Shown in pieces: positions 1,275-61,542 of a stretch of 64,000 nucleotides of DNA. Each line of letters opens with the position of its first letter. Position 1 is the stretch's first letter. Source of the stretch: a virus. Its lineage: Duplodnaviria > Caudoviricetes. The stretch is from the IMG/VR virus record IMGVR_UViG_3300028048_000055, positions 32,001 to 96,000 of that record; one strand, 5' to 3'. The position numbers were made by a program, and so were the translations under genes. Below the pieces are notes generated by a model, which saw only the letters and a program-made list of their open reading frames with translations, had not been told where the DNA came from and made no database searches.

Positions 1275-1736
1275 ATGCTTAATGAGTATAAAGAATGCTT
1301 TATAACAATTGGTAAATGGATTGGTAAATTCCTTTATGGTATTTTAATCCTTTTGCCTGCACTTGTATGGATTATACATTGTGTGATAATGAATATACAA
1401 GAACCACCAGTATTAGATGCAATCTGTATGGTTGTACTGAATATTGTATGGGCACTTATTCCGGTATGGTTTACTTGGGGTAAGCAATTTGGTACAAAAA
1501 AAGAATATTGTAAAGAATATTTCTCGTCATTTAGCCTCTGCATTATAGCAGTTGTTTTAATGGTTGGCTGTTTGTTTTATATTGTTCTGCCGGCATCATT
1601 GTATGTTATTTACCTATGTATAAATGGACCTGAACCACCACTACATTGGTATGATGTATTTATTATACCGATAACATTACTGTGGTTTCCGTTTGGAAAA
1701 TGGTCAATAGACAAGTTTTGGGCGTTATTAGATTAA
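1275..1736 (+). CDS. hypothetical membrane protein
   Basis: GGAG SD; about 4 hydrophobic segments. Confidence 0.7.
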   Translation: MLNEYKECFITIGKWIGKFLYGILILLPALVWIIHCVIMNIQEPPVLDAICMVVLNIVWALIPVWFTWGKQFGTKKEYCKEYFSSFSLCIIAVVLMVGCLFYIVLPASLYVIYLCINGPEPPLHWYDVFIIPITLLWFPFGKWSIDKFWALLD

Positions 1737-13403: not shown

Positions 13404-14039
13404 ATGAATGAATATATATGTAAATTTTGCGGTAAGATTTGTAAAAACATAAATTCTTTAAAAAATCATGAAAGATTATGTAAATTAAATCCTAATAGAC
13501 AAATATCGCCATTTGTAAAATATAATGCAGAGCATGAAACAAGTTGGAATAAAGGGCTTACAAAAGAAAATGATGAAAGAGTTAAGCAAATGGCTGAAAC
13601 TATGAGTCAAAAAATAAGAGCAGGCCTAATACATAACTATGATCATCAAAAAGTATGGACAGAAGAACGTAGAAAAGCACAATCTGAAAGGAAAAAGAAA
13701 TTTTATGAAGAACACCCAGAAAAGCATCCTAATAGCTTAGTAGCTGGTGCACTTAATAAAATGACATATCCTGAAAAATTAGTTACTGAATATTTAAAAG
13801 AACATAATATAACAGCAGAACATAATTGGTATTTTAAAACAGAAAAATTTACAAGATATATAGATTTTTATATAGATGAATTAAAATTATTTATTGAAGT
13901 TGATGGAGAATATTGGCACAAAGATAAACAAAAAGATATTGATAAAGATAATGATGCATTAATGTATGGTTATAAAACATTAAGGTTAAAACCAAAAACA
14001 GTTATAACACAATTAAATGAATTTTTTAATATGGCATAG
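13404..14039 (+). CDS. Zn-finger + DUF559/Vsr-like putative homing endonuclease
   Basis: YICKFCGK...HERLC, WNKGLTKE, IDFY...IEVDGEYWH. Confidence 0.8.
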   Translation: MNEYICKFCGKICKNINSLKNHERLCKLNPNRQISPFVKYNAEHETSWNKGLTKENDERVKQMAETMSQKIRAGLIHNYDHQKVWTEERRKAQSERKKKFYEEHPEKHPNSLVAGALNKMTYPEKLVTEYLKEHNITAEHNWYFKTEKFTRYIDFYIDELKLFIEVDGEYWHKDKQKDIDKDNDALMYGYKTLRLKPKTVITQLNEFFNMA

Positions 14040-14098
14040 GAAGTTCCTATTAGCTCAATGAGCATTTGATTGTTAATCAAAAGGTTTTACTTCCCGCC
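14033..14098 (+). ncRNA. UCCUAU scaffold copy 4 (mini D-arm + GTT/Asn anticodon arm)
   Basis: GGC-ATA-GGAAGT-TCCTAT...TAC-TTCC-C-GCC; TTTGA-TTGTTAA-TCAAA. Confidence 0.8.
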
Positions 14099-14109
14099 TA
14101 AATTTTTTA

Positions 14110-14180
14110 GCTTCTATAATTCAATGGTAAAATGCCGGTTTAGTAGTCCGGATTTCTTGGTTCGAGTCCAGGTGGAAGCG
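14110..14180 (+). tRNA. tRNA-Thr(AGT)
   Basis: GCTTCTA/TGGAAGC acceptor; loop TTAGTAG. Confidence 0.7.
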
Positions 14181-14222
14181 TAAAAATCTAAACTTCTGCT
14201 CTACCGAATTTATAAATATAAT

Positions 14223-14882
14223 ATGGAAGAAAATTATATTTGTAAATTTTGTGGGAAACAATGTAAAAATGCTAATTCTTTACGAAATCACGAAAGATTT
14301 TGTAAAGAAAACCCTGAACACCAAGAATCTCCATGGATAAAATTTAATCATGAACGAGGCGCTTGGAATAAAGGATTAACTAAAGATACGGATGAACGTA
14401 TTAAAAAACGTAGCGAAACATTTTCAAAACGCTATAAAGGCACTGAAGAAGGGAAACGAATTTTTAGTCATCCGCAATCTGAAGAACATAAACAAAAAAT
14501 GCGTAAAATTGCAACAGAAAGACATTGGGGCGGTTGGCATACCTCAAAATCTATTGAATTTAATGGTATAAATTTAGATTCTAGTTATGAAGTTGAAGTA
14601 GCAAATCAACTTAATGAAAATAAAATAAAATGGGAAAGACCTACTTATTTTCTATGGGAAGATACTAATGGAGTAAAACATCGTTATTATCCTGATTTTT
14701 ATCTTCCAGAATATAATGTATATCTTGACCCAAAAAATGATTATTTAATAAATAATAAATCTAAAAAATTTGGTATTACTGATGTTGAAAAAATAATGAA
14801 AGTTGAACAACAAAATGGAATACGTATAATTATTTTAGATAAAGATAATTTAACATGGGAAAACATTAAAGAAAAGATTTAA
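14223..14882 (+). CDS. Zn-finger + PD-(D/E)xK putative homing endonuclease
   Basis: same N-terminal Zn finger as 13404; DSSYE...YYPDFYL...DPK. Confidence 0.75.
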   Translation: MEENYICKFCGKQCKNANSLRNHERFCKENPEHQESPWIKFNHERGAWNKGLTKDTDERIKKRSETFSKRYKGTEEGKRIFSHPQSEEHKQKMRKIATERHWGGWHTSKSIEFNGINLDSSYEVEVANQLNENKIKWERPTYFLWEDTNGVKHRYYPDFYLPEYNVYLDPKNDYLINNKSKKFGITDVEKIMKVEQQNGIRIIILDKDNLTWENIKEKI

Positions 14883-16910: not shown

Positions 16911-16941
16911 GGCGCTATTAAAAATATTTTAAAAAGAGGGG

Positions 16942-16970
16942 TTGACAAACCAAAAACTTTTTACTATATT
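16942..16970 (+). promoter_or_regulatory. promoter of tRNA block 3
   Basis: TTGACA-N17-TATATT. Confidence 0.75.
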
Positions 16971-17032
16971 TTAATCAAACAAAAAACAAAAACAGGAAAA
17001 AAATTTTTATATATAATATAAAAGGTAACAAA

Positions 17033-17140
17033 ATGAACAAGAACTTTAACATTGAATTCATCGCGATTGCAGCAGAACGTATTGCAGAATTTGCAGAACG
17101 TGTTTTTGCGATTGACAATTCAGTGCACAGGTTCAAGTAA
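17033..17140 (+). CDS. attenuator leader peptide 3 (MNKNFNIEFIAIAAERIAEFAERVFAIDNSVHRFK)
   Basis: 6 Ala, 5 Ile, 5 Phe, 4 Glu; precedes Glu/Ala/Phe/Val/Ile tRNAs. Confidence 0.85.
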   Translation: MNKNFNIEFIAIAAERIAEFAERVFAIDNSVHRFK

Positions 17141-19951: not shown

Positions 19952-20071
19952 AATAGCAAAAGCGGTTCCTATAACCAGAGGAATAGCTTAGTTGGTTAGA
20001 GCAACGCAGCAATGCGGAGGCCGTCGGTTCGAGTCCGATTTCCCCTACCATCAAGTTTACTGCTCGCTATT
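19952..20071 (+). ncRNA. UCCUAU scaffold copy 7 carrying an anticodon-less tRNA mimic (GCAA loop, ACCA end)
   Basis: AATAGC-AAA-AGCGGT-TCCTAT...TAC-TGCT-C-GCTATT enclosing tRNA-like 19977-20050. Confidence 0.8.
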
Positions 20072-20121
20072 TTTACAAAAACAGGAAAAAATTTTTTATA
20101 TATAATATAAAGGTTAAGAAA

Positions 20122-20223
20122 ATGACAAAGTTTGTAGTTGATATGCATGATGTTGATACTCGCCGCGATGGACGAGGTTTCGGCAAGCATGATAAGGATC
20201 GCTACAGACACAGGGTCATTTGA
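20122..20223 (+). CDS. attenuator leader peptide 4 (MTKFVVDMHDVDTRRDGRGFGKHDKDRYRHRVI)
   Basis: 6 Asp, 6 Arg, 3 Gly, 3 His, 3 Lys; precedes Asp/Arg/Gly/Lys/His tRNAs. Confidence 0.85.
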   Translation: MTKFVVDMHDVDTRRDGRGFGKHDKDRYRHRVI

Positions 20224-23852: not shown

Positions 23853-24328
23853 TTATGAAAAATGAAAGAGTATTTACTAACGGTAATGAAGTATCTAAAG
23901 CATCAATGGTTCTTTTTGACATTAATGCCCATGTAAAAGAAATTGCAAAAAAATATAAAAATTATGCAATGACTGCATTTAATGAGTTTAAAGAAGTCAT
24001 GTATATTGCTAAAACTGATAAACGGTTTAAAGTTACTAAAGGCTTAAAACTAAAGCAGTCTTTTATTGACAAGACAAAGCAGACGCTTGTATTTCATTTT
24101 CAGGATGTAGTTGATAAAGTTAATTGCGAACTTGTCATGCAACCTTATTGTCGGGATTCTGATAGTCCTGAAGCAGAACTTGATTATGGTTATCATCTTT
24201 ATCTTGAAATGGAAAAAAATAAAGAAACAACTACCTTAAGTGATCCAGCACGAGACTTTGAAGAACGATATGAAAAATATAAAAATGAATTATTGGATTC
24301 TTTAAAATACAAGAACAAAAAATCCTAA
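23849..24328 (+). CDS. hypothetical protein
   Basis: coupled ORF. Confidence 0.65.
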   Translation: MIMKNERVFTNGNEVSKASMVLFDINAHVKEIAKKYKNYAMTAFNEFKEVMYIAKTDKRFKVTKGLKLKQSFIDKTKQTLVFHFQDVVDKVNCELVMQPYCRDSDSPEAELDYGYHLYLEMEKNKETTTLSDPARDFEERYEKYKNELLDSLKYKNKKS

Positions 24329-24364
24329 AAAATTAAATTACGAAATATAGGAATTATATTCACG

Positions 24365-24946
24365 ATGTTATACGATGATTTTAAAAAGGTTCTAGATCAG
24401 CAAGGAATCGGTATAGTTGCAGATGGAATAGGAAATGCTGCTATCTATTATATTGTCAAGGCCGGCGATGGCCGTAAGGATATACATATTGATCTTGGTG
24501 GCTATTGCGATATGGAACCGTTCAAGTGGTCTGTTGATTCTGAATGGAATGTAGCGAAAAATACGAAAAACTATCATGGTCAACCGTGGGATATCATTTC
24601 CGTGAAATCTGAATATGTCGATAGCGAATTTGGTGGTGGTTATTATGATATAGATACAAAAACCTATCTTGCAGACGAAGAATATCTGAAGCAAATCATC
24701 GCGGCAAAAGACAAACTATTGTCTATATTACCGGAATTGACGGAAATGAGCAAAGCTGTTTTCGATGATGCAATGAAAGATGTCTTTAGCTTAAGTATCG
24801 AGAAAAACTACATATCAAAGAAATGGGTTGGGCATCTTACTTATAAAGGCATAAGAAAACATACAAAAAGTTGTACTAGTTTCTTCGAAGCCAAAGAAGA
24901 GCTCGATAAGCTCTATACTGAGGCTTATGCTATGGACCATTCCTAA
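24365..24946 (+). CDS. hypothetical protein
   Basis: 193-aa ORF. Confidence 0.65.
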   Translation: MLYDDFKKVLDQQGIGIVADGIGNAAIYYIVKAGDGRKDIHIDLGGYCDMEPFKWSVDSEWNVAKNTKNYHGQPWDIISVKSEYVDSEFGGGYYDIDTKTYLADEEYLKQIIAAKDKLLSILPELTEMSKAVFDDAMKDVFSLSIEKNYISKKWVGHLTYKGIRKHTKSCTSFFEAKEELDKLYTEAYAMDHS

Positions 24947-25041
24947 GTATCAATTAAATAAACCAATATTACTAGTCCAGAATATACAAAATTACGTAAT
25001 TCACCAGAATTCAAGAAATTGATTCATAATGAGGAATAAAT

Positions 25042-25272
25042 ATGGCCAATCCAAAAGAAAAATATTTTAATATTGATACTGATGAAGTTGTATGTCCATA
25101 TTGTGGTGCTGAAGTAATGGATTCATGGGAATTACCTGATTGTGATGATATTGAATGCTGGGAATGTGGAAAGAAATTTCATTATGAAAGAGAAGTAACT
25201 GTAACTTACTGGTCACATAGAATTAAAGACGATGGTAAAGTAGATTATAAAGATGAATTAATTGAACAATAA
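25042..25272 (+). CDS. small Zn-ribbon protein
   Basis: CPYC...CWEC. Confidence 0.7.
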   Translation: MANPKEKYFNIDTDEVVCPYCGAEVMDSWELPDCDDIECWECGKKFHYEREVTVTYWSHRIKDDGKVDYKDELIEQ

Positions 25273-25285
25273 TTTATTTTTAGGG

Positions 25286-25314
25286 TTTACAAACAGAAAA
25301 TAATTTACTATATT
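25286..25314 (+). promoter_or_regulatory. promoter of tRNA block 5
   Basis: TTTACA-N17-TATATT. Confidence 0.75.
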
Positions 25315-25376
25315 TAACAACGTAAAATAACAAAAAAGAAGAAAAAAATTTTATATATAATATAAAGGTTTAAAAA

Positions 25377-25463
25377 ATGAAGACTCTTAGTTTAACACTT
25401 GTCCTACTCAGTAGCCTGCTCCTCAGCTGGTTATTGCGTCGTAATATAGTGGGAACTAAGTAG
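25377..25463 (+). CDS. attenuator leader peptide 5 (MKTLSLTLVLLSSLLLSWLLRRNIVGTK)
   Basis: 10 Leu using all six codons, 4 Ser (all AGY), 1 Trp; precedes Trp/Leu/Ser(GCT) tRNAs. Confidence 0.85.
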   Translation: MKTLSLTLVLLSSLLLSWLLRRNIVGTK

Positions 25464-25491
25464 TTCGGTTTTTTAATCGTATGAATTTATA

Positions 25492-25524
25492 AAGGTTCCC
25501 ATAAGTTGGGGACCTTAATTTTTT
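25492..25524 (+). terminator. attenuator terminator 5
   Basis: AAGGTTCCCA/TGGGGACCTT plus T tract; GTGGGAACT (25449-25457) competes. Confidence 0.85.
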
Positions 25525-25528
25525 ATAT

Positions 25529-25600
25529 AGCTCTATGAGGTAACGGTAGCCTACGAGACTCCAAATCTGCGAAATCCCTGTTCGAATCGGGGTAGGGCTG
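25529..25600 (+). tRNA. tRNA-Trp(CCA)
   Basis: loop CTCCAAA; G73. Confidence 0.78.
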
Positions 25601-25604
25601 TAAA

Positions 25605-25694
25605 CGGTCTGTGATTGGAATTGGTATACAGCATCGGCTTAAACCCGGTGGCCGAGATAAATACGGATTGGGGGTTCGAGTCCCTTCAGGCCGA
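25605..25694 (+). tRNA. tRNA-Leu(TAA)
   Basis: loop CTTAAAC; long variable arm. Confidence 0.82.
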
Positions 25695-25704
25695 TAAAAT
25701 ATAA

Positions 25705-25786
25705 CGGTATGTGATGGAATGTATACATGCGGGCTTGAGAGGTCCGTGCCCAAAAGGGATTGGGAGTGCGAATCTCCCCGTACCGA
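25705..25786 (+). tRNA. tRNA-Leu(GAG)
   Basis: loop TTGAGAG; long variable arm. Confidence 0.8.
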
Positions 25787-25794
25787 TAACATAA

Positions 25795-25878
25795 CGTCAG
25801 GTGGAGTAATTGGTAGCCTCGCAAGAACGAGAGTCTTGTGGTAGAAATACCGTGAGGGTTCGAGTCCCTCTCTGACGA
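25795..25878 (+). tRNA. tRNA-Leu(GAG) with A32/C33
   Basis: CAAGA-ACGAGAG-TCTTG. Confidence 0.75.
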
Positions 25879-25887
25879 TAAATTAAT

Positions 25888-25972
25888 GGAAGCGTAGGCT
25901 AATAGGTAAGCCAGCACTTTGCTAAAGTGCCGTGGAGAAATCTGCTTGAAGGTTCGAGCCCTTCCGCTTCCG
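25888..25972 (+). tRNA. tRNA-Ser(GCT)
   Basis: GCACT-TTGCTAA-AGTGC; G73; long variable arm. Confidence 0.87.
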
Positions 25973-25980
25973 CTACATAT

Positions 25981-26092
25981 TGCTTGGTGGTGAAAATCGT
26001 GTGGCCTAGGCGCATCGTAGGTAAACACGCCCCGCATAGTAGGGGTGTCTACTTAGCTGGTAGACTTGTTGGTTCGAGTCCAACCTAAGCAG
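25981..26092 (+). tRNA. atypical tRNA (Leu-like) with D-loop insertion and 8-nt anticodon loop
   Basis: acceptor, T arm and variable arm present; GCCCC-GCATAGTA-GGGGT. Confidence 0.55.
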
Positions 26093-26100
26093 TTAAATAT

Positions 26101-26174
26101 CCACTGGTGATGGAACTGGCATACATATCGGATTCAAAACCCGAGTTTTGAGGGTTCGACTCCCTCCTGGTGGA
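26101..26174 (+). tRNA. tRNA-Leu(CAA) with short variable loop
   Basis: loop TTCAAAA. Confidence 0.75.
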
Positions 26175-26180
26175 CTAAAT

Positions 26181-26265
26181 GGCCGAGTGATGGAACTGGC
26201 GAGACAACGGTGCCTTAGAAGCATCGGTCCGAAAGGGCGTGTGGGTTCGAATCCCACCTTGGCCA
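26181..26265 (+). tRNA. tRNA-Leu(TAG)
   Basis: GGTGC-CTTAGAA-GCATC; long variable arm. Confidence 0.87.
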
Positions 26266-26267
26266 CT

Positions 26268-26489
26268 ATGACTAACTTTGAAATGTGAAAGGAATCGCTC
26301 ACTGCAGAAGAGTGGGCAAATAAATTTGTAGAACTGGATTATTGTCCAAAATGTCCAGCCTATAGTTTTTGTAGAGATTGTGATATATTGAATCCAACAA
26401 AGTTAGATGGAACAGTCAATACAGAAGAATGTAATAATACTTGTAGAAAGAGATTTCTTACTTGGGCAAATAAAGATGCACAATGTTAA
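26268..26489 (+). pseudogene. small Cys-rich gene with an in-frame TGA at codon 7
   Basis: MTNFEM*KESLTAEEW...CPKCP...C reads through to TAA 26487. Confidence 0.5.
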
Positions 26490-26799
26490 ACATGCATATG
26501 TATATTGTAATGATAAGCTTGCGGGTCATTTGTTAAGAAACCGCAAGCATTATGTTTTTATATACGATAAAGATTATGTTGGTCCATCTATTGCCATAAA
26601 TTTTCCTAAATCAACTAGATACTATTCTAGTCCGTATTTATTTCCGTATTTTTATGGATTGTTGCCAGAAGGTGAAAATAAAGAATTCTATTGCAAAATA
26701 TTTCACCTTAATCCAGATGATAATTTTGAAATCCTGACAAATTTAGCATGGCATGAAACAATTGGTCCTGTTACTGTAAGACCTTTCAAAAACGGTTGA
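26476..26799 (+). CDS. stand-alone HipA N-terminal domain protein (HipS-like)
   Basis: AYVY...AGHL...YVFIYD...LFPYFYGLLPEG...IGPVTV. Confidence 0.8.
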   Translation: MHNVKHAYVYCNDKLAGHLLRNRKHYVFIYDKDYVGPSIAINFPKSTRYYSSPYLFPYFYGLLPEGENKEFYCKIFHLNPDDNFEILTNLAWHETIGPVTVRPFKNG

Positions 26800-26845
26800 C
26801 AAAACATTAATAGTTTTCTATATTAAAATAAAAAAGAGAACCTTA

Positions 26846-27250
26846 ATGTATACATGTAATCCAGATAGAGTTTTTCGTGGACCACGTGAAGCACAAGAAC
26901 ATGATATGGTAGTTGACTTTACTCATGAAGTTGCTAAAAAACTTGAAAAACTTAAATTACCTACATTTGGTAATAATGAAAAATTATTTTCATATATCGA
27001 ACGTGAAAACAGAGATAAGTTATATTTGTCATTTAAATGTGATTATAGAAAAGAATCCATTTTCGTAGAAATTCCTTCAGTTGATTTTGGTATATCTTTA
27101 CACGTAAAAGATTTAAAAAAGATTAAAACTAAACTTAAACCTGATGGTTATCTTATAAAAGCTATTAATGAAGGTGAAGATTTAATAAGGCAAATTCGTA
27201 GTACAATAAAGTCGAAAATTCATACAGCAATTACATTGGATGAAGTATAA
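26846..27250 (+). CDS. hypothetical protein, tandem paralog 1
   Basis: RVFRGPREA...KKLEK...DGYLIKAI. Confidence 0.7.
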   Translation: MYTCNPDRVFRGPREAQEHDMVVDFTHEVAKKLEKLKLPTFGNNEKLFSYIERENRDKLYLSFKCDYRKESIFVEIPSVDFGISLHVKDLKKIKTKLKPDGYLIKAINEGEDLIRQIRSTIKSKIHTAITLDEV

Positions 27251-27702
27251 TGCATGAAATTATAGATGATAGACAATGGCGTGGACCGACTGATGCTGTA
27301 ACATTTAAGAGAACTTGTGAAAATAATCATAGTTTAGCACAAAAACTTGAAAAACAAGGTATTAAGACTAGTGGTATAAATGATGAACTTTATGCTTGTT
27401 TAAAAATTAATAAGCATCCATTATTAATACAACCTAGTTGGCGTTATATTGATTGTTGGGGTTCGCATCCTAGTGGTAAAGATCCATATGATGTTAATAT
27501 TATGATTCCTGCGGTAGGAGTAACAATTCCTGTTAAACTTGCTAAAATTAAAAAGACATTTGAATCTAAAACTTATCTTGTAAAAGCATTGACCGAATAT
27601 AGTGCGGCATTAGCTGCTGCAAAAAGTAAAAAAGCAAAAAAATCTGTAGACTTGGCATATACAAGTATAATTGAATCAGCTCAAGCATTTGATGAGGCAT
27701 AA
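27250..27702 (+). CDS. hypothetical protein, tandem paralog 2
   Basis: RQWRGPTDA...KLEKQGI...DPYDVNI. Confidence 0.75.
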   Translation: MHEIIDDRQWRGPTDAVTFKRTCENNHSLAQKLEKQGIKTSGINDELYACLKINKHPLLIQPSWRYIDCWGSHPSGKDPYDVNIMIPAVGVTIPVKLAKIKKTFESKTYLVKALTEYSAALAAAKSKKAKKSVDLAYTSIIESAQAFDEA

Positions 27703-28130: not shown

Positions 28131-28262
28131 ATGGAAACTTATATTTTATTTGGAATTCCTGCAGTAATTTTTGGTTACATGTTTTTTGGAACCATTGGAA
28201 GTATTCTTAAAACCCGAAAAGAAATTTTAAGATTAAGACATGAAAAAAATTATTTTTATGGG

Positions 28263-28291
28263 TTTACAAACAGAAAATAAATTACTATATT
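28263..28291 (+). promoter_or_regulatory. promoter of tRNA block 6
   Basis: TTTACA-N17-TATATT; near-identical to 25286. Confidence 0.75.
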
Positions 28292-28357
28292 TAACAACGT
28301 AAAATAACGAAAAACAAGAAAAAACTTTTATATATAATAATAAAGGATAAAAGCAAA

Positions 28358-28447
28358 ATGAACTATCAGTTATATACATCATGCACTTCTTCATGCAGAC
28401 AGCAGTCTTCATGTTATTGCATGTATTCCATTAAAACTGATGGGTGA
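28358..28447 (+). CDS. attenuator leader peptide 6 (MNYQLYTSCTSSCRQQSSCYCMYSIKTDG)
   Basis: 6 Ser (all TCN), 4 Tyr, 4 Cys, 3 Gln (all CAG); precedes Tyr/Cys/Met/Ser/Gln tRNAs. Confidence 0.85.
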   Translation: MNYQLYTSCTSSCRQQSSCYCMYSIKTDG

Positions 28448-30972: not shown

Positions 30973-31056
30973 GGAAGAGCATCAGATTGGCGACTCAAGC
31001 TGTCCTGAAAACAGTAGTTCCGCAAGGGCTTGTGGGTTCAAATCCCTCCTCTTCCT
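30973..31056 (+). tRNA. tRNA-Ser(TGA) with C33
   Basis: GCTGT-CCTGAAA-ACAGT. Confidence 0.75.
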
Positions 31057-59757: not shown

Positions 59758-61542
59758 ATGACAAAACTAAAATCATTAATCTTGTGCTTGTTAATGTGTG
59801 TATCAATGGCTTTTGCAGGTCTTGCAGACAATGCTTCAAAGTTCGTTGGTAATATCACTACTAATGGACAAATTCGTTCTGACTTTGGTCAGTATTGGAA
59901 TCAGATTACAGCAGAAAATGAATGTAAGTGGGCTTCAATTGAAGGCACTCGTGGGCGTTATAACTTCACCGGCTGTAAGAACGCTTACAACTGGGCAAAG
60001 CAGAATAATAGCTACTTTAAGTTCCATGCATTGCTTTGGGGTTCACAATATCCGAACTGGCTTGAAGGATTGAGCGTTGATGACACGAAGACAGCTATTA
60101 TGAACTGGTTTGATGCAGTCAAGAAGGAATTCCCAGACATTGACATGATTGACGTTGTTAATGAAGCTATCCGAACTGGCAATAATCAGTACCATTCCAA
60201 CTACCCGAAGACAAAGATCATTGAAGCAATGGGCGGAGATAATGGCAACTATACATTCATTGTCAATGCGTTTAAGGAAGCAAGAAAGAGATGGCCAAAT
60301 GCAGTCTTGATTTATAATGACTATAATACAGTTCAGTGGCAGAAGAATGAAGGTATTGATTTAATTAATAAGATTAAGCAGGGTGGTGCTCCGGTTGACG
60401 CATATGGTCTTCAGGCTCATGACATGCAAGTTGGCGGTGGTGGAAACAACGGAACTGGTGCTAATGGTTCTTGTTTGCCTCTAAGTCAGTTGAAGTCAGC
60501 GATTGAAGAAATTTGGACTAAGACACAGACACCAATGTTCATTTCAGAGTATGACATTGCGACAACTGATGACAATGACCAGAAGAATTGCTATTCTCAG
60601 CAGATTTCTTACTTCATGGAAAATGAACATATTGCTGGTATTACTATTTGGGGTTATATCTATGGTTCTACTTGGACAAGCGGTGGTAACTCTGGCATTA
60701 TCAGAAATGGTCAAGATAGACCTGCAATGACTTGGCTTAAGGAATATTTGCCTTCTCATCCAGGTAACAATACAACAGGATTGCTTGGAAGTATAGCAGT
60801 TGAGCCTGAACCACAGAAACCGTTTAAGGGTAAGGCATTTGATTTGACCTCTCCTATTGAAGCAGAAGATTTCGATATTCCTGGTAAGGGTAGAAATGAA
60901 GACGGAACAAATAATAATTCCTATTCTGCAAGTGGTTCTTGCGATGATACTTGGAATACAACATATCGTGAAGGAACAACTGTTAGTATTGGCGAAAAGA
61001 ATGGTGGTTTAGTTATTGGTTGTAATCCTACTGGAAACTATTATGAATATACAATTAAGGTTCCAGAAGCTGGTAATTATATCGTATATGTTACTGTAGC
61101 TGCAGATGGTGAAGGCGCAGTTGTCTTCAAGAATGGTGATAAGGTAATTTCTGATACTATTAATTATTCTGGTGATTCTTGGACTAAGTTTGAAACAGCT
61201 AAGGGTCATGTAACATTTGATGCTCCTGGCGAACAGATTTTAACACTTGAAATCGCTAAGGGTTATATCGATGTCGATAAGTTCGAATTTATGGTAACAG
61301 ATTGTGCTCCAGGTGATGTAACTTGCGGTGGTCCGTCTATTGACTGTGATGCACATCCTGATGCTCCAGGTTGTGATATTGTAAGCTTTATGCCGATTAG
61401 ACAAGAACCTGTATTGCAGCATTTTAAGATTTTTGACCTTAATGGTAATTATCTTGGATTGGTAAGCGGCTATAGTAAGACTGGTGCAGCAAATGTAGTT
61501 GCAAATAAGTTACATACTCGTGTAATTTTGATTAAAAAGTAA
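59758..61542 (+). CDS. secreted GH10 endo-1,4-beta-xylanase with CBM6-like module
   Basis: signal peptide; QITAENECKW, FHALLW, DVVNE, YNDYN, GLQAH and ISEYD; IEAEDFD CBM. Confidence 0.9.
   Translation: MTKLKSLILCLLMCVSMAFAGLADNASKFVGNITTNGQIRSDFGQYWNQITAENECKWASIEGTRGRYNFTGCKNAYNWAKQNNSYFKFHALLWGSQYPNWLEGLSVDDTKTAIMNWFDAVKKEFPDIDMIDVVNEAIRTGNNQYHSNYPKTKIIEAMGGDNGNYTFIVNAFKEARKRWPNAVLIYNDYNTVQWQKNEGIDLINKIKQGGAPVDAYGLQAHDMQVGGGGNNGTGANGSCLPLSQLKSAIEEIWTKTQTPMFISEYDIATTDDNDQKNCYSQQISYFMENEHIAGITIWGYIYGSTWTSGGNSGIIRNGQDRPAMTWLKEYLPSHPGNNTTGLLGSIAVEPEPQKPFKGKAFDLTSPIEAEDFDIPGKGRNEDGTNNNSYSASGSCDDTWNTTYREGTTVSIGEKNGGLVIGCNPTGNYYEYTIKVPEAGNYIVYVTVAADGEGAVVFKNGDKVISDTINYSGDSWTKFETAKGHVTFDAPGEQILTLEIAKGYIDVDKFEFMVTDCAPGDVTCGGPSIDCDAHPDAPGCDIVSFMPIRQEPVLQHFKIFDLNGNYLGLVSGYSKTGAANVVANKLHTRVILIKK

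Follow-up and report, generated by a model that had tools for sequence, protein, structure and literature searches.

A putative attenuator in a giant phage whose leader codons match the tRNA genes behind its terminator

The leader at positions 25377-25524 of the window (the whole 64,000-nt stretch of DNA that was analysed, AT-rich with 32% GC and part of a 165-kb contig from an uncultured giant phage) is probably a trp/ilv-style attenuator whose output tRNAs read its own test codons and thereby exert negative feedback; we put the probability of this reading at roughly three in four. An earlier note on this DNA had proposed an attenuator here, and sequence analysis supports the proposal with a predicted promoter, a Shine-Dalgarno sequence, a short ORF rich in cognate codons, alternative helices and a terminator, all of which are kept in relatives. 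The reading is also supported because the match between leader codons and downstream tRNAs recurs both within the window, where four sister units show it, and in a second phage, LR756511.1. There is a decades-old debate on why phages have tRNA genes and what use they make of them: it has been proposed that the tRNAs serve for codon compensation, replace host tRNAs that have been degraded, or help the phage to evade defences that cleave tRNAs (PMC10264068, PMC11555353). Defences of the latter kind aside from cleavage are included when tRNA-targeting defences are documented as a pressure on phage tRNAs (PMC10264068, PMC11555353). We found nothing published on the codon-specific regulation of phage tRNA genes and, in the literature searched, no description of leader-peptide control of tRNA genes; an eLife paper on phage tRNAs makes no mention of attenuators, leaders, terminators or promoters.

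Direct reading and a scripted re-derivation from the sequence agree on a plus-strand ORF of 28 codons that begins with the ATG at 25377 and closes with TAG at 25461-25463 (Table 1). An earlier start is impossible because an in-frame TAA lies two codons upstream. The ten Leu codons that the earlier note had counted (CTT, TTA, CTT, CTA, CTC, CTG, CTC, CTC, TTA and TTG, in this order) do comprise all six kinds, the four Ser codons (AGT, AGT, AGC and AGC) are all of the AGY type, and Trp is represented by a single TGG. All 15 of these cognate codons fall within codons 4-20, and the eight tail codons contain none. Both promoter hexamers are retained in 10 of 10 aligned relatives, and the 5' UTR element is invariant across all relatives and common to sister units B-E. 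Downstream, an intrinsic terminator is predicted with a stem of 10 pairs (25492-25516) and a run of six T residues, and tRNA-Trp(CCA) begins 4 nt past the end of that run. The genes that the earlier note had listed behind it, for Trp(CCA), Leu(TAA), Leu(GAG) twice, Ser(GCT), Leu(CAA) and Leu(TAG), are all called by ARAGORN, which finds 38 tRNA genes in the window, all on the plus strand and in blocks spanning 11.1-31.2 kb.

Table 1. Positions of the putative attenuator, the tRNA genes behind it, the sister leaders and the LR756511.1 unit. Positions are those of the window except for LR756511.1.
Feature	Position	Strand	Basis or remark
Sigma-70-like promoter (TTTACA, 17 nt, TATATT)	25286..25314	+	Predicted; consensus scan, 10/12 match
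Conserved A/T-rich 5' UTR element	25349..25368	+	Ends in Shine-Dalgarno AAAGG (25364-25368); 8 nt to ATG
Leader ORF (unit D), 28 codons + TAG	25377..25463	+	Frame and length retained in 11/11 variants
Region 1, 5' strand of 1:2	25382..25402	+	MFE; consensus fold, 96.5% of helix 1 cells paired
Regulatory codon tract, codons 4-20	25386..25436	+	15/17 codons are Leu, Ser(AGY) or Trp
Apical hairpin within ORF, codons 10-21	25406..25439	+	99.4% of cells paired
Region 2 (core 25449-25457)	25444..25465	+	Pairs with region 1 or region 3; includes last four codons and stop
U6 run just 3' of the 1:2 hairpin	25469..25474	+	Sequence; interrupted in the L023 group of relatives
Region 3, terminator 5' arm and antiterminator 3' strand	25492..25502	+	Predicted pairing
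Terminator region 4 (3' arm 25507-25516) and T-tract (25519-25524)	25507..25524	+	Changes in relatives' 3' arm stay paired via G.U
Putative regulated tRNA block, seven tRNA genes and a tRNA-like RNA	25528..26266	+	ARAGORN, Rfam, fold
tRNA-Trp(CCA)	25528-25601	+	ARAGORN
tRNA-Leu(TAA)	25605-25694	+	ARAGORN
tRNA-Leu(GAG), two copies	25705-25786, 25795-25878	+	ARAGORN
tRNA-Ser(GCT)	25888-25973	+	ARAGORN
tRNA-Leu(CAA)	26101-26175	+	ARAGORN
tRNA-Leu(TAG)	26181-26266	+	ARAGORN
Unit A leader	12797		Codons follow own block: Asn/Pro/Thr
Unit B leader	17033		Codons follow own block: Ala/Glu/Val
Unit C leader	20122		Codons follow own block: Asp/Arg/Gly/Lys-AAG/His
Unit E leader (unit 6)	28358		Codons follow own block: Tyr/Cys/Met/Ser-TCN/Gln-CAG
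LR756511.1 unit	L050:1322-4712		Promoter-like site, ORF, terminator, tRNA block
LR756511.1 leader ORF	L050:1408-1491		27 codons, GTG start, good Shine-Dalgarno sequence
LR756511.1 terminator	1515-1552		17 pairs
LR756511.1 tRNA block			Ser(GCT, GGA, CGA, TGA), Leu x5, Tyr x2; no Trp tRNA

The codon content of the leader is unusual for this genome. The earlier note had suggested a comparison with genome-wide codon usage; with the 155 long ORFs of the 165-kb contig as background, the leader proves enriched for the nine codon kinds that its block reads, which make up 15 of its 27 codons as against a background fraction of 0.106 (10.6%; P=2e-8). The two strands of the contig contain 1215 ATG-initiated ORFs with a length of 15-45 codons, and the leader ORF ranks first among them for the codon set of this block. 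Obtaining all six Leu kinds within ten draws has P=0.018, and since AGY accounts for 33% of Ser codons, four of four in the leader corresponds to about 0.33^4 = 0.012. The codons CTA, CTC and CTG, together 12% of Leu codons genome-wide, supply five of the ten in the leader (P=0.004). The earlier note had taken such GC-rich Leu codons in an AT-rich genome as a sign of selection on codon identity. Their over-representation stands; the argument built on it is weaker because they lie largely in the apical and 1:2 stems, where RNA pairing could equally explain them. For the unit at 25377 taken alone, the conservation of cognate codons is thus confounded with pairing in the apical hairpin and in 1:2, and codon-level selection is better shown by the split of Ser codons into AGY and TCN between units, described below.

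The leader RNA is predicted to fold more stably than its shuffles (z=-5.45 for the whole leader), and the MFE structure is one long interrupted hairpin across the whole ORF followed by the terminator. In the 1:2 helix, 25368-25402 pairs with 25444-25478. The further pairing that the earlier note had drawn between the leader and the terminator exists as well: 25449-25457 can pair with 25494-25502 over nine pairs, two of them G.U. The antiterminator therefore shares a strand (region 3) with the terminator, and 1:2 shares another (region 2) with the antiterminator. The predicted energies are -33.6 kcal/mol for 1:2, -15.2 kcal/mol for the 2:3 segment and -16.0 kcal/mol for the 3:4 terminator. When the complete terminator is present, equilibrium folding lets it win in every ribosome state, so the switch must be kinetic. 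Since the equilibrium fold always means termination, we replaced it by folding the RNA as it stands prior to the synthesis of region 4, in 10 variants and with a ribosome masking the stretch from -15 to +14 around its A-site. In this model P(2:3) is about 0.97 for a ribosome with its A-site at codons 2-20 and 0.67-0.85 at codon 21; at codon 22 and all later ones, the stop included, it is about 0. Without a ribosome it is 0-0.03 in nine of the 10 variants, in which 1:2 holds region 2; the exception is the relative L004, which favours 2:3. By the geometry of the model, region 2 is exposed when the ribosome stalls at the regulatory codons and covered when it stands at the stop, which makes such a switch thermodynamically feasible. 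Relatives have cognate codons further on as well, at positions 23-24, although a stall so late in the ORF would be expected to bring no benefit. The U6 run downstream of the 1:2 hairpin is a candidate pause site that may synchronise ribosome and RNA polymerase, in the manner of the pause hairpins of the trp and his systems.

These features suggest how the element might work. Transcription would begin at the predicted promoter, and a ribosome would load on the leader and translate it. Under rapid decoding of the Leu, Ser(AGY) and Trp codons, the ribosome would reach the last codons or the stop and cover the core of region 2, whereupon the terminator would form and transcription would stop at the T-run, short of tRNA-Trp. 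A ribosome that lingers at any of the 15 cognate codons would instead cover or cut off region 1 and leave region 2 free; the latter could pair with the 5' arm of the terminator once this is made, so that transcription would continue into the genes for tRNA-Trp, tRNA-Leu and tRNA-Ser(GCT). If no ribosome loads, 1:2 and then the terminator would form, resulting in superattenuation. Since the products would be the very tRNAs that read the test codons, the circuit would amount to a negative feedback loop that supplies tRNAs on demand, and it would act on the supply of charged Trp, Leu and Ser(GCU) tRNAs, host plus phage. In nature, decoding might be slowed by a mismatch between phage and host codons, by a host tRNA pool that decays in a long infection, or by tRNA-targeting defences.

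Relatives of the locus are found through its parts. Megablast of positions 24300-27300 against 50,697 phage records gave no match and the distant mode only single tRNA matches, while searches for related loci via three neighbouring proteins and for the exact terminator pattern in viral contigs found nothing. The productive route combined homologues of the upstream 193-aa gene with a 19-mer of region 2. The former led to three contigs, at 57% amino acid identity, with the same leader, terminator and Trp/Leu/Ser(GCT) block, and the latter to 9 metagenome and 11 viral contigs of up to 411 and 424 kb; a degenerate pattern of the core peptide added one further variant (L046). This pattern was also tried as a route to members that use other synonymous codons, and it returned the same codons only, the other matches being unrelated Phe-containing frames. 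From about 25 contigs we obtained 11 distinct leader variants, each of 28 codons, of which 14-18 of 27 are cognate. All six Leu codon kinds occur in 10 of the 11, and Ser is encoded by AGY throughout except for one TCT. Every contig that extends far enough downstream has Trp, followed by three to seven Leu tRNAs and Ser(GCT) in varying order and copy number. The presence of Leu(CAG) or Leu(CAA) varies among relatives, Leu(CAA) being absent in L004, and the leader does not follow such finer changes in Leu anticodons. None of 185,579 prokaryote genomes contains the 19-mer, which therefore offers no clue to the host. The sample labels of the relatives (XIEF21, TONG22) and a Fib_succ_major match at one relative's locus look like ruminant-gut studies, and the window itself encodes a phage glycosyl hydrolase of family 10 (xylanase-like) at 59758-61542 (E=1e-51).

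What these relatives retain bears on whether the ORF matters for its product or for its codons. Between the window and L004, the stretch from promoter to tRNA is 82% identical, as compared with 64% (nucleotides) and 57% (amino acids) for the neighbouring gene. Several tRNAs of the block (25605-26266 against L004:10924-11283) are only 50-64% identical, which suggests that tRNA genes have been turned over or replaced while the control region in front of them was conserved. At conserved residues with degenerate codons, the leader has kept the same codon in 15 of 18 cases and the neighbouring gene in 54 of 102. Replacements among the variants affect seven of eight non-cognate codons and three of 15 cognate ones (Fisher P=0.006 with L046 included); if L046 is left out, as it was found through the core peptide, the counts are 6/8 and 3/15. 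It is possible that the ORF encodes a functional small hydrophobic peptide, akin to a membrane or signal peptide, that has a promoter and a terminator of its own and lies before tRNA genes by accident. Indeed, the 28-residue product resembles a single transmembrane helix with a Lys at its N-terminal end and RR behind, and its hydrophobic sequence is well conserved in relatives. The earlier note had named a conserved peptide of this type, with homologues free of synonymous constraint, as evidence that would speak against an attenuator, and the codon counts (15/18 as against 54/102) point the other way: synonymous sites are constrained, while the flanking charges are radically replaced (K2T and R21D). 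Moreover, in 2.9 million viral contigs the core pattern finds true family members only before tRNA-Trp, the 19-mer is missing from the prokaryote genomes mentioned above, and sister leaders are not hydrophobic, each of them tracking its own tRNA set. No PHROG family is matched at E up to 0.01, a search in which a query of 28 residues has little power, and no promoter-like site that could serve the tRNAs separately is among the matches listed (at least 9/12) on the plus strand between the terminator and 26796. We therefore regard a peptide function with an incidental position as very improbable, the least credible of the alternatives considered here, and return to the attenuator.

The structure of the attenuator is also maintained in relatives. 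In the terminated-state structure 97.9% of cells are paired, as against 28-52% in slid controls. Twelve pairs vary one-sidedly and one two-sidedly; the latter, the sole compensatory pair, is a change from CG to UA in the apical hairpin that arises in L004 from L11S together with R21D. Overall, covariation is weak and the structural support that the alignment lends is modest. For the antiterminator no covariation was found among the variants: the 9-pair helix 2:3 is 100% paired in 10 of them, with one site varying between G-C and G.U, an invariance that is partly due to the fact that nine of the 10 aligned variants were found through the 19-mer inside region 2. These data could be taken to mean that the terminator is constitutively leaky, or is controlled by a phage or host factor such as an antiterminator protein or a processing signal, and sets a fixed or timed level of tRNA without the ORF acting as a sensor. 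In favour of this, the structure is strongly conserved and highly stable, the terminator always prevails at equilibrium, and the antiterminator lacks covariation. However, a terminator of this kind leaves unexplained why the ORF heads the ranking of 1215 small ORFs for the codon set of its own block, why four sister units and LR756511.1 are built alike from quite different sequences, and why frame, length and Shine-Dalgarno sequence are retained in 11 of 11 variants. We consider it unlikely and continue with the attenuator as the preferred explanation.

The arrangement is not confined to one block. A search upstream of the tRNA blocks of the window found small ORFs before four others (units A, B, C and E; the leader at 25377 is unit D). 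Cross-tabulation of leader codons and block anticodons yields a diagonal 5x5 matrix; of the 120 permutations of leaders over blocks, the true one scores best. Ranked among the 1215 small ORFs for the codons of their own blocks, the leaders of units A, C, D and E come first and that of unit B second. The division of Ser codons is the clearest case of this match at the level of codons: those of the leader at 25377 are AGY in 4/4 cases, with Ser(GCT) in the block, whereas those at 28358 are TCN in 6/6 cases, with Ser(GGA/TGA/CGA) in the block, where Ser(GGA) and Ser(CGA) are accompanied by a tRNA at 30973 that Rfam alone detects and that is taken as Ser(TGA). A further instance comes from leader 6 of L004 (13198-13340), which has four Ile codons before a block (13577-14559) that includes tRNA-Ile(GAT) twice. 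Its counterpart in the window contains a single Ile codon, and ARAGORN detects no tRNA-Ile(GAT) anywhere in the window. Units A-E differ from one another in the sequence of the ORF, in that of the terminator and in the tRNA set. Units B-E nevertheless have in common a promoter/UTR cassette that extends to the start codon (16925-17036, 20010-20125, 25270-25380 and 28250-28361) and consists of a TTKACA...TATATT promoter, an A-rich stretch, a TTTTATATATAATA motif and the Shine-Dalgarno sequence; in unit C a tRNA takes the place of the promoter, and units D and E are near-identical across the cassette. Since the cassette is shared, the ORFs have diverged on a common chassis. The TATATATAATA motif of the cassette may be a second, phage-specific promoter.

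It might be argued that the element senses the general status of translation, such as ribosome availability, coupling or a (p)ppGpp-like slowdown, rather than the decoding of Leu, Ser and Trp codons, and that the codon bias contributes little. According to the mask model, antitermination follows from a stall anywhere in codons 2-20 regardless of codon identity, and the three-state logic reacts to ribosome loading itself. A general sensor, however, has no need of a codon match that holds block by block, down to Ser AGY as opposed to TCN, Lys AAG and Gln CAG, and we deem it quite unlikely, more so than a leaky or factor-controlled terminator. The alternatives fail mainly because this match holds block by block across unrelated sequences. 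A bolder scenario extends the attenuator to the entire phage tRNA complement, which would be split into at least five autonomous, attenuator-gated homeostat modules with a shared cassette, each reading how fast its own codon set is decoded, and would act in concert as an inducible counter-measure. We offer this as a tentative proposal that falls short of an even chance. If it holds, the collapse of one tRNA family in the host, caused by anticodon nucleases or other tRNA-targeting defences, by host shut-off or by codon mismatch, would switch on the matching phage tRNA block alone, and with all six Leu codons sampled, the block described here would be triggered even if just one Leu isoacceptor, whichever it is, were lost.

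An independent case is provided by LR756511.1, a published 595-kb uncultured phage for which tRNA-Leu is the sole sequence shared with the window. Its leader contains eight Ser codons (all six kinds), five Leu and two Tyr codons, that is 15 of 26 codons, located within codons 5-21, and no Trp codon. Nothing usable emerged when the rest of LR756511.1 was searched for a homologue of tRNA-Trp. The tRNAs of this phage are partitioned differently from those of the window and the leader codons still match them; the leader thus follows the partition.

The tRNA block and its surroundings show several other features. Between Ser(GCT) and Leu(CAA), at 25979-26093, lies a tRNA-like RNA of about 115 nt that is called neither by ARAGORN nor by the Rfam tRNA model. 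It folds (z=-3.4) with a 9-pair acceptor stem, a T arm, a long hairpin resembling a variable arm and an extra hairpin, and relaxed ARAGORN settings return an unreliable Thr(agt) with a 29-nt intron. It is possible that this is a Leu-like tRNA with UAG in an 8-nt loop, as the earlier note's mention of an atypical Leu-like tRNA would have it. A different uncalled tRNA-like sequence, with CAG at the position of the anticodon loop, occupies a comparable place after Ser(GCT) in the L018 group of relatives. A small Cys-rich ORF (26268-26489) starts 2 nt past the last tRNA and comprises an ATG with five codons, an in-frame TGA and then 66 codons without a canonical start; two diverged relatives (L016 and L027) retain this layout including the in-frame TGA. 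Genome-wide recoding of TGA can be dismissed, as 12 of 155 long ORFs terminate with TGA; local read-through or reinitiation is a possibility. Directly behind the block, and possibly co-transcribed with it, the window encodes a protein that consists of a HipA N-terminal domain only (26476-26799; PF13657, E=4e-15). We considered this gene as part of a co-regulated module, a notion that is unsupported, since it has no counterpart at the relatives' loci.

If phage tRNA genes lie behind an attenuator with test codons for their own products, the phage would gauge the speed of decoding for each codon family and top up shortages only. Leader-peptide attenuation would then extend from amino-acid metabolism to the tRNA pool itself, and the element would offer a natural, compact and codon-specific sensor. 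The underlying signature, leader codons that match downstream anticodons, can be used for annotating tRNA operons in huge phages.

Comparison with known systems helps to define what is familiar and what is new in this element. The ilvGMEDA leader contains Leu, Val and Ile codons, thrL Thr and Ile codons, and leuL four Leu codons including the rare CUA. With these the phage element would share a translated short leader that contains several kinds of regulatory codons, rare ones among them, as well as mutually exclusive 1:2, 2:3 and 3:4 helices, a terminator placed before the regulated genes and read-through in response to a stall. It differs in that the targets there are biosynthetic enzymes, whereas here they would be tRNA genes, the product of which is the molecule sensed as short. 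Moreover, the phage leader covers Trp, a single Ser box and the full set of six Leu codons, and thus matches anticodons rather than a pathway, and it is a viral element without sequence similarity to the classical leaders, one of at least five cassettes that share a promoter/UTR. In the trp system the terminator is at least as stable as the antiterminator, so that control is kinetic. The phage element resembles trpL in its predicted superattenuation without translation, termination with the ribosome at the stop and antitermination upon a stall, with a U-rich stretch as a possible pause; trpL relies on two adjacent Trp codons, in contrast to 15 cognate codons over 17 positions here, and the apical hairpin inside the phage ORF has no trp counterpart.

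Like the pheST leader (pheM) and T-boxes, which control genes for aminoacyl-tRNA synthetases, the phage element would make the expression of a part of the translation machinery depend on the condition of the cognate tRNA. However, the pheST leader controls a synthetase where the phage element would control tRNAs, and a T-box binds uncharged tRNA directly and does not need an ORF. A covariance model search of positions 9000-33000 (cmscan, E up to 0.1) returned tRNA-clan matches only, with neither a T-box nor another Rfam family at 25280-25527. A possible leader-like precedent at the tRNA-Phe genes of E. coli was not supported by the K-12 sequence: no Phe-rich ORF or attenuator can be seen upstream of pheV, and only about 106 nt separate dicD and pheU. 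The unit of LR756511.1 has the same architecture as the one described here, with leader codons equal to the tRNAs behind them, and differs in covering Ser (all boxes), Leu and Tyr, without Trp. Unlike those of all classical members, the putatively regulated genes of the phage unit are not genes for biosynthesis, transport or synthetases. The novelty thus concerns the target, tRNA genes, rather than the mechanism, and extends to the viral host, the modular repetition and the matching at the level of codons.
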